From Verrucomicrobiota bacterium (GTDB lineage: Bacteria > Verrucomicrobiota > Verrucomicrobiia > Limisphaerales > Palsa-1400): 64,000 nucleotides of DNA. Location of the stretch: NCBI GenBank assembly GCA_049510745.1, contig JBEKYR010000022.1, positions 19,591-83,590 of the forward strand, read 5' to 3'. The notes below the pieces were generated by a model. The model worked only from the letters and a program-made list of their open reading frames with translations, had not been told where the DNA came from and ran no database searches. This document shows, piece by piece, positions 20,870 through 23,655 of the stretch (position 1 is the first letter of the stretch; every line of letters begins with the position of its first letter). The position numbers were made by a program, and so were the translations under genes.

Positions 20870-20913
20870 TTTAGCTCCGTTTTACTCCGTTTTAGTCCGT
20901 CTTACTCCGTTTT
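20870..20913. repeat. Four tandem ~10-bp repeats (TTTACTCCGT consensus) overlapping the DUF3486-like stop codon
   Basis: tttagctccgt tttactccgt tttagtccgt cttactccgt. Confidence 0.9.
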
Positions 20914-21600
20914 GGCTGGGTCAAAGCCGGCTTCTTTTGCGGCTTGGAGGAGGAGTTTGCGGTGTTGCAGGTTCATGGTTTCGGCGTTGGGGCCCGACCA
21001 GGTTTGGCTGACCGGGTCGAAGGTGTTGGCTTCCGCCGAGCCGGCGACGCCAAGGAGATCGTTGATGGATTCGTCTTGTTCGTCGTCGGTGAGGGGCCGG
21101 TCAAGGCAGGGCTGGCCGGCTGCGGCTGGGTGATGGAGGCGATGATGGAGGGCGACGGTGGCGAACTGGTAGCGGCGAAGGGAGGCGAAGCTGAGGCGGA
21201 ATTGGCGCCAAAGGTTGGCAAGCTGATCGGGGTCTGCGATGGCGTTCTGGGTTCGCTTCATTTGCGCGAGCATCTGTGAGGCAAAGAGAGTAGCCATGCG
21301 GTCAATCAAGCCGCCTTGCAGTTCCGTGAGTCTATCGGCGGGAAGTTGGTTGATGCGGTGGAACATATCCTGAGCCATGCGTTCGGCTTTCCATTCCTGG
21401 TGGCCGCCTGCGCGCCATTCGTTGAGGTTGTCTTCGGTAACGGGGCGGCCTTCAAAGTCCTGGTCGAGGATGGCTTTGACTGAGGGATCGGAGTTGAGCC
21501 AGTCGGCAATGGGTCTTGAGGGTTCGCCTTGTTGGAGGCGGGTGTTGACTTGTTCGCGGATGGCCAGCGGGAGCCGGGCGATTTTACCTATGCGTGACAT
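20902..21600 (-). CDS. DUF3486 / phage Mu gp27-like protein (candidate small terminase subunit, HTH N-terminus)
   Basis: MSRIGKIARLPLAIREQVNTRL...IADWLN...NLNEWR N-terminus; adjacent to terminase large subunit. Confidence 0.6.
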   Translation of the reverse strand: MSRIGKIARLPLAIREQVNTRLQQGEPSRPIADWLNSDPSVKAILDQDFEGRPVTEDNLNEWRAGGHQEWKAERMAQDMFHRINQLPADRLTELQGGLIDRMATLFASQMLAQMKRTQNAIADPDQLANLWRQFRLSFASLRRYQFATVALHHRLHHPAAAGQPCLDRPLTDDEQDESINDLLGVAGSAEANTFDPVSQTWSGPNAETMNLQHRKLLLQAAKEAGFDPAKTE

Positions 21601-21621
21601 AAGTTTCTTTGCAGGCAGATG

Positions 21622-23190
21622 TTACAAAAAATCGGAGTTTGGTTTTTGGGGGACGTAGTGGCGGTCGCGCATTCTCTCTTCTTCGAAGTGAGCGGCTGTG
21701 GGGATTATGCCGAGCGGGTACGGCCAGCCGTCGCCGTAAAGGGCGTGGTGGGGGTTGATATTGATGCCCGCCACGGAGACGGTGGCGCAAAGGTTCGTGG
21801 CCGCGCGCCAGGCGAGGGCGAGGGCGGTGCAGCGGTCGGCGTGGCCGTCGTCAGTGTGGGCGGCCCGATAGGAGACGTAACCGGAATTGGAGCAGACAAG
21901 GACAACGCTGTGGAGGTCTTCGCGGATGGCGCGGGAGACGGGGATACGGAGTTTATGTTTGGCGAAGGCGTCGCGCAGGTTGGCGAAGAGGGCGCATTTA
22001 ACGGGGGCGGTGAAGGAGAGGAGTTCAATTTTGCCGAATTTATGTTGAGGAGGATTCCATTGGCCGAAAAGCTTGACGAGGTAATCGCCCAGACCGATGC
22101 CAGGTCCGGTGTAATCAAAGCAAACGCGGTGGACGCGCCTGATTCTGCGGGAGAGAATATCGACCTGGTCTTGGGTGGGAGTTTTGGAGAGTTCAAGAAC
22201 TTCGACGGTGTGCTCGACGTCGCCCACAGTGGCGGTGGTCCAGGCGACGGTGAGGTTGCGTTTTCTGCCGAAATCGATGCCCATCTTGAGATTTGCGTTT
22301 ACAGATGTTTCCCAGAAATCGGGCGGACAGAAAGCGGTGGCATCGAGGCTTTCACATTGGGCGATGAGGTCGTAAGGGAGGAGGATGCTTTGGGCGTCGA
22401 GGAATAGGCATTCGAACTCCTGATCCCAGCCATCCGGGTCGTCGAGGGCGGATTTGAGGTCTGGAATGTGGATATCGAGGCCGTTGCGGACGGCTTCGCG
22501 GATGGGGACGAAATGGCAGGACCAGATGGGGGAAATAGTTGAAGTTTGAATTAGTGATTTGTTGAGTGGGGCAGTCAGTTTTCCCCCGGCATTCACTGAT
22601 TCACTAATTCTCACTTCACTAATTCGTTTGTAGTTCTTGATCCAGAGGTCGTGGGCTTTGTTGCCGATGCCGTTGGGGGTGGTGATGAGGCGGACTTTTT
22701 TGACGCCGCCGCGCAGGGGATTTGTGATGGCGGGGAGAATGGCGCGCCAGGTGGCGTCGGGGTTTTCGAAAAAGGCGAACTCAGAAAGAAGCACGTTGGC
22801 GCTGTAGCCGCGGACGGTGTCGGGCTTGCCGGGGACGGCGATCACGCGCGAACCCTTGGGAAAAGTGATAGTGGCCGAGTGGAGAAGGGCTTCCGGGCCG
22901 CCGTCGCGGTTCTCGTGATAGTTGTGGATGGCGGCATTGAAGGTATTGGCCCAGGACTTCCATTTTTCAAGGCTTTCAAGGGATTGTCGTTCGGAAGGAG
23001 CGGCAATGAGCCAGGTGGTGGGTTTGCGGGAGGCTTCGGCTTGGATGCAATCAAGGATGCCTTCGTAGGCTGCGGAGAAGTCTTTGCCGACCTGGCGAGC
23101 CATGAGGCCGAATTTCCAGCGAGAGGAGTCGTCCACCCATTTTTGCTGGTAGGGGAGGAGTTTTTTGCGGAGATTTGCGGTGATGGTCAT
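21622..23190 (-). CDS. Terminase large subunit, Mu gp28-like
   Basis: LLPYQQKW Q-motif, ARQVGKD Walker A, DTVRGYSANVLLSEFAF Walker B region, ITTPNG motif III, WDQEFEC, nuclease GIDFGR, FDYTG, GHADR. Confidence 0.9.
   Translation of the reverse strand: MTITANLRKKLLPYQQKWVDDSSRWKFGLMARQVGKDFSAAYEGILDCIQAEASRKPTTWLIAAPSERQSLESLEKWKSWANTFNAAIHNYHENRDGGPEALLHSATITFPKGSRVIAVPGKPDTVRGYSANVLLSEFAFFENPDATWRAILPAITNPLRGGVKKVRLITTPNGIGNKAHDLWIKNYKRISEVRISESVNAGGKLTAPLNKSLIQTSTISPIWSCHFVPIREAVRNGLDIHIPDLKSALDDPDGWDQEFECLFLDAQSILLPYDLIAQCESLDATAFCPPDFWETSVNANLKMGIDFGRKRNLTVAWTTATVGDVEHTVEVLELSKTPTQDQVDILSRRIRRVHRVCFDYTGPGIGLGDYLVKLFGQWNPPQHKFGKIELLSFTAPVKCALFANLRDAFAKHKLRIPVSRAIREDLHSVVLVCSNSGYVSYRAAHTDDGHADRCTALALAWRAATNLCATVSVAGININPHHALYGDGWPYPLGIIPTAAHFEEERMRDRHYVPQKPNSDFL
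22546..22626. repeat. REP-like inverted-repeat element inserted in frame inside the terminase gene
   Basis: Minus strand GAATTAGTGAA..GAATTAGTGAATCAGTGAA...TCACTAATTC; shares GAATKAGTGAATCAGTGAA with the intergenic element at 38207-38272. Confidence 0.65.
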
Positions 23191-23262
23191 AGGGGGGGTT
23201 GTTGGAGGGGCCCCGGCCGGTTGCCGATTTCCTTCACCGCATATTGGCGCTTTAGCGTCATG

Positions 23263-23323
23263 GTGTTATCCGATAACACATATTACGGGGTGATGTCAAG
23301 CGATAATCTGTTACTAAATAACA
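23263..23323 (-). promoter_or_regulatory. Putative terL promoter: TTGACA (23294-23299, minus strand) flanked by two TGTTA-N5-TAACA palindromes
   Basis: GTGTTATC-C-GATAACAC at 23263-23279 and TGTTA-CTAAA-TAACA at 23309-23323; the -10 element is weak. Confidence 0.6.
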
Positions 23324-23330
23324 ATTTTCA

Positions 23331-23655
23331 AAATGGACCCCGAAAGGGCTGAAGAAAGGGACGGAAAGGACCAAAAGGACAGACACGGACGGACACGGAC
23401 GGACACGGACGAATGGACCGCGGAATGGACCGCGAATAGGCTGAAAAAGGGAACGGAAGGGATGGGGATTATGATTACGATGAGGAAAAGGACGGAAGGG
23501 ACGGAAAGGGCCAATAGGACGGACACGGACGGACACGGACGGGCACGGACGGACACGGACGGGCACGGACAAATGGACCGCGAAAAGGCTGAAGAAGGGG
23601 ACGGAAAGGACGGGGATTACGATTACGATGAGGAAAAGGACGGAAGGGACGGAAA
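23331..23655. repeat. Purine-rich composite repeat tract with GGACACGGAC decamer arrays and duplicated ~40-bp blocks
   Basis: 3 decamers at 23381-23410, 5 at 23521-23570; AAATGGACC..GGCTGAAGAA..GGGACGGAAAGGA at 23331 and 23571; GGGGATTA.GATTACGATGAGGAAAAGGACGGAAGGGACGGAAA twice. Confidence 0.92.

Follow-up and report, generated by a model that had tools for sequence, protein, structure and literature searches.

The window, a 64,000-nucleotide stretch that forms part of contig C22 of the source genome G000 (other contigs of this genome are called C3, C8, C10, etc.), carries a gene for a Mu gp28-type large terminase (TerL) and, 21 bp behind it, a gp27-like (small terminase-like) gene. Judging from the gene content, I tentatively favor the explanation that this pair is a terminase cassette accessory to a particle system that was domesticated from a Mu-type phage, is spread over several loci, and resembles a gene transfer agent (GTA); I give it slightly less than an even chance. 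On genomic grounds, the window TerL would work like a GTA component, the likeliest of the roles considered. Source names and Atlas taxa place the host in Verrucomicrobiae, perhaps in Pedosphaerales. If particles are made, the system would be a candidate for a GTA of Mu descent in this group; in the literature searched, consisting mostly of open papers, neither a GTA in Verrucomicrobiae nor a description of this system was found, and the supplementary tables of GTA surveys could list such loci. The preliminary description of this DNA regarded the pair as standing alone. This view had to be given up: cognate modules were found on contigs C3, C10, and C23, and the window copy is one of three extra TerL copies.

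Table 1. Features of the window and fusion transposase genes of related genomes
Feature	Position	Strand	Remarks
Low-GC orphan ORF, 393 aa	19624..20805	-	Hydrophobic N-terminal part; same strand as the pair, 97 bp downstream
10-bp-period repeats	20876..20913		At the 3′ end of the gp27-like gene; six other contigs carry close copies
gp27-like (small terminase-like) gene, 232 aa	20902..21600	-	Remote Mu gp27 homology
Mu gp28-type TerL gene, 522 aa	21622..23190	-	Uninterrupted ORF; Pfam, PHROGs, fold
Palindromic repeat insert, in frame, TerL loop	22540..22618		Around aa 190-217; low pLDDT
Copy of the C3 early control region	23233..23353		76% identical
TGTTA-N5-TAACA palindromes, two	23264-23278, 23309-23323		Within the copy of the C3 early region
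TTGACA hexamer	23299-23294		Facing TerL
Start of the HTH repressor gene of C3 (first codons)	23333..23353	+	Then decay into repeats
Direct-repeat array, 10-bp-period and longer	23341..23655		Repeat types dispersed through the genome
Fusion transposase open frames, 681-746 aa	L181:2291-4333, L182:1979-4099, L183:2156-4339, L184:2147-4384

The gene content of the window agrees with what had been claimed: ORF coordinates and remote homology confirmed the uninterrupted TerL frame and the gp27-like gene behind it. The TerL matches PF03237 (E 3.6e-8, over the cut-off) and phrog_2 (E 4e-32), and the best PDB matches of its model are the T4 gp17 and D6E terminases, with a match to the G20c fold too. 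It has, by PF03237, phrog_2, and fold, the large-terminase architecture of an ATPase and an RNase H-fold nuclease. The gp27-like protein alone has no Pfam match, and PF11985 had no match in the genome. However, hhalign gave a probability of 86% against three phage gp27/TerS proteins and 93% against the module TerS proteins of relatives, DUF3486 is the top viral fold match (E 0.028, probability 0.96), and weak PF11985 matches occur in 4 of 33 aligned homologs. By these three kinds of evidence, the second gene is a remote Mu gp27 homolog. Its homologs precede TerL in G005, including the portal-linked cluster of that genome.

The pair is flanked by GH3, a low-GC ORF, and ABC genes, again as described. 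Portal, capsid, and tail genes, said to be missing from the window, are absent from the whole window contig, and each module gene has a single match, on C10 or C23. No integrase, replication origin, or att site was found among the ORFs between the GH3 and ABC genes, and a tRNA scan of the window gave none. The low-GC ORF, which has no family match and, under a strict filter, no homolog in 150 genomes of the order, is probably a separate insertion. An NCBIfam search with eight proteins gave no matches. The repeat insert in the TerL loop is missing from the orthologs P0002 and P0003. Many TerLs of the clade have a different repeat-derived insert at the same loop, and in-frame palindromic repeats are also found inside C23 module genes (tail region).

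The genome-wide search revealed orphan early and portal-capsid-tail modules, conserved in relatives, which supports the idea of a domesticated and dispersed GTA-like module. The early module on C3 consists of an HTH repressor, a MuB-like remnant, and Gam. The C10 module has, in Mu order, two lipoprotein-like genes, a lipase, a membrane protein, gp26, a 192-aa TerS, and TerL. The C23 module, where the sought portal and capsid genes were found, has the sole Mu portal, protease I, the capsid gene, gp36, and tail-region genes. PHROG/Pfam matches across the modules cover the repressor, MuB-like protein, Gam, gp26, TerL, portal, protease I, and gp36; the Atlas neighbours of the C23 capsid protein are capsid clusters, and every module gene is single-copy in G000. 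C10 keeps the order of Mu (gp26-gp27-gp28-gp29 in the phage), and G000 shares with Mu the Mu-type portal, protease I, gp36, Gam, and MuB-like protein. Mu-like phages (Alteromonadaceae phage B23, Pelagibaca vB_PeaS-P1, and Pseudomonas B3) have TerLs that are 30-33% identical, with gp27 homology. Unlike Mu, the system occupies three loci and has swapped Walker residues, extra terminases, a reversed order in the window, and no intact MuA that could be found.

A contiguous prophage with MuA was not found in G000; the modules lie on three contigs, and the only traces of MuA are a MuA/TnsB-like fragment in a 242-aa frame on C15 and a weak match on C6. No intact MuA was detected in G000, nor any match to the two MuA types of the family. 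The PF02914 profile had no matches anywhere and is uninformative, because the control gave no match either. MuA could be missing from the assembly, since the genome is 94% complete. No Mor/C activator was detected by PF08765. The C15 fragment lies beside a tyrosine-recombinase-like gene and an AAA fragment (L188, G000:C15:31000-33716); this region is a decayed element whose position has no relation to the modules.

Is the system inherited as a whole? Of the 24 family genomes with a completeness of 85% or more, 11 have the capsid gene. Within the genera g1, g3, g5, and g8, it was found in 11 of 12 genomes, with identities of 84-92% in 10 of them and 68% in one; it is frameshifted in 2 of the 12. 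The layout in genus g10 is the same, with a head set that is divergent. A headless tail-only cluster in g10 was considered and ruled out by the divergent portal, protease, and candidate capsid genes there. TerL and portal are separated in most genomes, while the system is in one piece in G001 and three g10 genomes. The portal and protease tree recovers g3 and g8 as clades and G000 together with G002, and places G001 outside its genus; the portal module has host neighbours common to G006, G015, and G020 (two genera). The structural genes are thus conserved and vertically inherited, and no replication module was found with them, as in a GTA; G001 is the exception in the tree, and inheritance was judged by genera. 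The system seems to have been inherited by the family, and its pieces have been copied to dozens of chromosomal places.

A palindromic motif, whose position suggests a late promoter, was read by eye in front of the portal (11 of 12 genomes) and in front of the lysis module (6 of 9). In six genomes read at both loci, the genome-specific variant of the motif is the same or nearly the same at the two. Late motifs changing in step at split loci suggest selection on the whole system. A similar late-type motif is also present in an apparently complete Mu-like prophage of G012 (L141, L045, and L140 on G012:C4) with transposase, MuB, and Gam. This prophage has lysis and tail genes in common with the domesticated system, an HK97-type head, and a TerL with Walker B DE.

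G000 has four full TerL genes, on C22 (the window), C8, C10, and C70, plus a fragment on C3. In a 130-row tree (the trees are quick and FastTree builds), the window and C8 TerLs nest with C10 and the module TerLs of G002 at a support of 0.988, and the window TerL derives, by duplication, from the module TerL that the host lineage has on C10. The subfamily that it forms with P0002, P0003, P0148, and P0149 (support 1.0) sits on a long stem, and its members share 8 changes at sites that are otherwise conserved. It was shown that the window TerL changed fast at first and was conserved later. The closest homologs lie outside complete Mu prophages, a point on which the preliminary description had staked the idea of domestication.

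The proposed selection check did not give the refuting outcome either. The window TerL is under purifying selection: it keeps 185 of 200 invariant columns (93%) compared with 113 of 232 variable columns, and its ATPase half is conserved as well as its nuclease half. Codon-model omega is 0.02-0.08 for three solo TerLs versus 0.07-0.11 for module copies, while the counting-method dN/dS is 0.41-0.44 among solos, 0.24 for solos versus C10, and 0.17-0.27 for module copies; synonymous sites are near saturation, and saturation and skew affect both measures. Intact orthologs of the window TerL in databases are 73-77% identical, and orthologous TerL and gp27-like proteins lie on equal-sized contigs in two cases (27201 and 31169), which suggests the same pairing in the orthologs. 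These data bear on the possibility that repeat-rich islands merely duplicate pieces of an old prophage remnant, whose copies are idle and decaying. Broken solos in g10, many gp27 fragments, long branches, and the fourfold-site C/G skew of the solo set, the most extreme among 2693 called genes, all fit this possibility. However, the intact 522-codon frame, the invariant sites, and the intact orthologs already strain it, and I consider it improbable.

The solo genes occupy 7 of the top 8 places when the 2693 genes are ranked by C-skew, and the extreme skew suggests weak synonymous selection. A solo-specific mutation process was rejected. The skew follows the local strand in several relatives and was therefore read as an amplified replication bias. 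A recent insertion of the window copy was likewise ruled out by the equilibrated skew and by a dS above 1 between the window TerL and C10; no young full-length sister of the window copy was found. A metagenome scan returned an identical copy (L146), a short identical piece, two 34% relatives, and nothing else.

The TerL-first order of the pair had been taken for an inversion of the Mu order, and this interpretation failed. The cognate TerS and TerL stand in normal order on C10, by which an ancestral inversion was rejected. The gp27-like partner in the window is not a cognate TerS, and the pair is a secondary assembly, because the partner belongs to a gp27 family that is multicopy in G000, where it has 5 full members, a truncated one, and numerous 3′ fragments. 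Matches to this family occur in 27 of 30 family genomes, with up to 33 per genome. TerL precedes the gp27-like gene in the window, on C70, on C8 (3.2 kb apart), and in G019 and G023, while the gp27-like gene comes first in G005, G025, and G057. In relatives, the TerL to gp27-like arrangement recurs in G019 and G023; a search of 30 same-family genomes gave no window-type copy, G001 and G002 having the module TerL only. Portal-less TerL copies have arisen in both TerL clades. Of the 6 extra TerL loci in genus g10, 5 are either broken or without the last catalytic Asp. The single-contig genome G005 has five portal-less TerL loci and one portal-linked cluster (L079-L084), and an upstream palindrome is common to this cluster and two of the solos. 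Longer gp27-like proteins are found in g10 (L189:2727-4052 and L191:2608-3891); their C-terminal end looks like what I take to be a Sel1-type repeat.

How is the window TerL controlled? A copy of the C3 early control region lies upstream of it, in which two palindromes and a TTGACA hexamer may serve as operators and promoter. The palindrome occurs 6 times genome-wide, always in pairs and at only three loci (C3, the window, and C23). Since early operators and the start of the repressor gene lie upstream of TerL, TerL stands in place of the early operon here. The C8 TerL and C8 gp27-like genes follow the late motif instead. On C23 (C23:164-453, L110), I found the window cassette with its genes deleted and its ends joined, 92% identical and with both operators intact. 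The early control region is recognisable in G002, G006, and G012. A sigma-70 promoter scan gave matches at chance level.

Early control combined with an intact nuclease triad would also suit a defence or suicide nuclease: a related phage would lift repression at the copied operators, the early TerL would cut DNA, and the spare gp27-like protein would jam the invader's terminase. A D-to-N change at the accessory nuclease site, which the window TerL has as well, leaves the G20c terminase active (PMC5389553), and terminase-targeting defence exists in the form of TerI (10.1101/2025.02.27.640495). Packaging is a possible target in both cases; by its description, TerI differs in being a small inhibitor protein and not a terminase copy (10.1101/2025.02.27.640495). 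Two AT-rich genes lie between the C8 TerL and gp27-like genes (L034:6598-8503), the first of them weakly methyltransferase/mad2-like, and a methyltransferase-like gene at this place would fit defence. Against this, PADLOC had no match for TerL, the gp27-like gene, or the low-GC neighbour; the C8 copies, which follow the late motif, would be made too late; and the ATPase and nuclease halves of TerL are equally conserved. Thus, the anti-phage decoy or nuclease proposed earlier gained no positive support, and its probability is low.

Of the ATPase and nuclease motifs that had been reported, the ATPase motifs proved non-canonical. The triad D306, D359, and D452 is intact, and the accessory D312 is changed to N, the same change as in the active G20c variant. 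In place of the canonical GK[S/T] and DE, the window TerL has GKD in Walker A (R32-Q-V-G-K36-D37) and SE in Walker B (L-L-S136-E137). All 19 aligned clade members (19/19) have GKD with T/SE, while GKS and DE are seen in the two nearest outgroups. Of the best 120 database matches, KD is found in 118, and the Walker B Asp in none of the 115 readable ones (0/115). In contrast, of seven viral contigs with close head genes (capsid 63-65%), all five readable ones have GKS and DE. The Walker Ser/Thr and Asp are described as Mg-coordinating signature residues (PMC5737356). Since both coordinate Mg, it is reasonable to regard the GKD/SE pair as a reciprocal compensatory swap that would leave the ATPase working. 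On the other hand, the swap could have disabled the packaging motor, because the same source describes the Walker B aspartate as strictly conserved (PMC5737356). The particles might be DNA-free or killing particles, or the swapped TerL might be a nuclease or DNA-binding factor without motor function. The loss of the Walker B Asp in the whole clade and the lipase beside the lysis genes point in that direction, but the portal, protease, and capsid have been retained and share their regulation with TerL, and both Walker motif changes occur together. I regard this as very improbable. The putative natural reciprocal Walker A/B swap in a packaging motor is so far confined to this chromosomal clade.

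In the favored explanation, an accessory cassette of a GTA-like system, the C3 repressor would keep the window TerL silent. On induction, TerL would be made early, cut chromosomal DNA, and load it in trans into procapsids, for which C23 has the single portal/capsid set, while the gp27-like protein would give extra packaging start sites. The Walker swap would be compensatory, with the ATPase kept working. The broken solos of g10, the C3 fragment, the deleted derivative on C23, the capsid frameshifts, and the higher counting dN/dS count against this explanation, as do the lack of a window-type copy in the 30 family genomes searched, the Walker swap if it disabled the motor, the place of G001 in the tree, and the chance that the incomplete assembly has lost a MuA. 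Multi-locus GTAs are known (PMC5026251). As in RcGTA of Rhodobacter, phage structural and packaging genes are spread over several loci and conserved across a host group, with no replication module found, as far as RcGTA is described in PMC5026251 and PMC7947584. Unlike RcGTA, for which these sources give a P22-like headful TerL, the present system has a Mu ancestry, a phage repressor, Gam, a MuB remnant, duplicate terminases, and mini-elements.

These mini-elements were found through the late motif, which has 25 exact copies in G000 versus 0 for a reversed control. Twenty of the copies head short elements (e.g., C1:53164, C3:113288, C18:17661, and C22:1320), which consist of the late-type motif and a short ORF and mostly end in a gp27 3′ piece with 10-bp repeats; their median identity is 93% over the first 90 nt. 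G002 has a separate family (L153-L172) with the motif and a gp27 5′ piece in 20 of 20 examined loci, one of them full length. The ends are ragged, no terminal inverted repeats were noticed, and no target-site duplication at fixed offsets was found in 13 G002 and 16 G000 mini-elements, a test weakened by indels. The mini-elements resemble MITEs and REP-like mosaic repeats in being short non-autonomous copies with a deleted derivative and a candidate transposase in relatives. They differ in that no inverted repeats were noticed and no target duplication was found, and in their makeup, a promoter-like motif of phage type joined to pieces of terminase genes. The candidates are MuA-like DDE transposases with a C-terminal gp27-like DNA-binding domain, found in 4 of 31 family genomes (three genera) and not in G000; these domains share 41-57% identity with the G000 paralogs. 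The fusion transposase of G020 has a portal gene downstream.

Terminase cassettes and 20-30 promoter and gp27 mini-elements have repeatedly spread within the family. The satellite-like hijacker of the preliminary description, taken here as a selfish packaging cassette, is a serious rival to the GTA-like cassette, although I consider it rather unlikely. The gp27-like gene would carry or create a packaging start and, together with TerL, steer host particles to its own locus; the cassette would spread by transduction, flanking-repeat recombination, or the MuA-gp27 fusion transposase, and the mini-elements would be non-autonomous followers. In addition to the fusion transposases, the 20 promoter-bearing mini-elements of G000, and the independent set in G002, the deleted cassette copy on C23, the recurrence of portal-less TerS/TerL cassettes in two distant TerL clades, three G057 copies that are 89% identical at different loci, and a different terS-like gene that G006 has at the orthologous site, within a repeat island of similar kind, all fit this rival. 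The ragged ends, the missing target-site duplications (in a weak test), the absence of the fusion transposase from G000, and the age of the window copy without a young full-length sister speak against it. Moreover, Mu packs from its left end, not from gp27. SaPI and PICI satellites, which carry their own small terminase, and lateral transduction offer a parallel. Like SaPIs and PICIs, the window cassette is non-autonomous and has a terminase gene by which the capsids of a helper could be redirected. Unlike them, it carries TerL too, and its helper would be a resident domesticated system; the ORFs that separate GH3 and ABC gave no sign of an integrase, a replication gene, or an att site. The two explanations might also be combined: a Mu-type phage may have been tamed into a GTA with a swapped motor and then parasitised by selfish terminase cassettes and promoter-gp27 mini-elements, which would be dispersed packaging starts moved by MuA-gp27. 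This would be a new class of packaging-drive elements, and I consider it unlikely. If particles are made, the repeated spread of terminase genes and promoter-bearing fragments would show how selfish DNA can bias GTA packaging.

In the four relatives searched, the GH3 and ABC genes do not lie next to each other, so that these genomes offer no empty site for comparison. At the orthologous site of G006 (L104:1-1400, G006:C24), the repeat island has the same repeat types as the window, and the different terS-like gene in it has the same orientation, and G001 has an apparent tRNA gene (read by eye) at this site.
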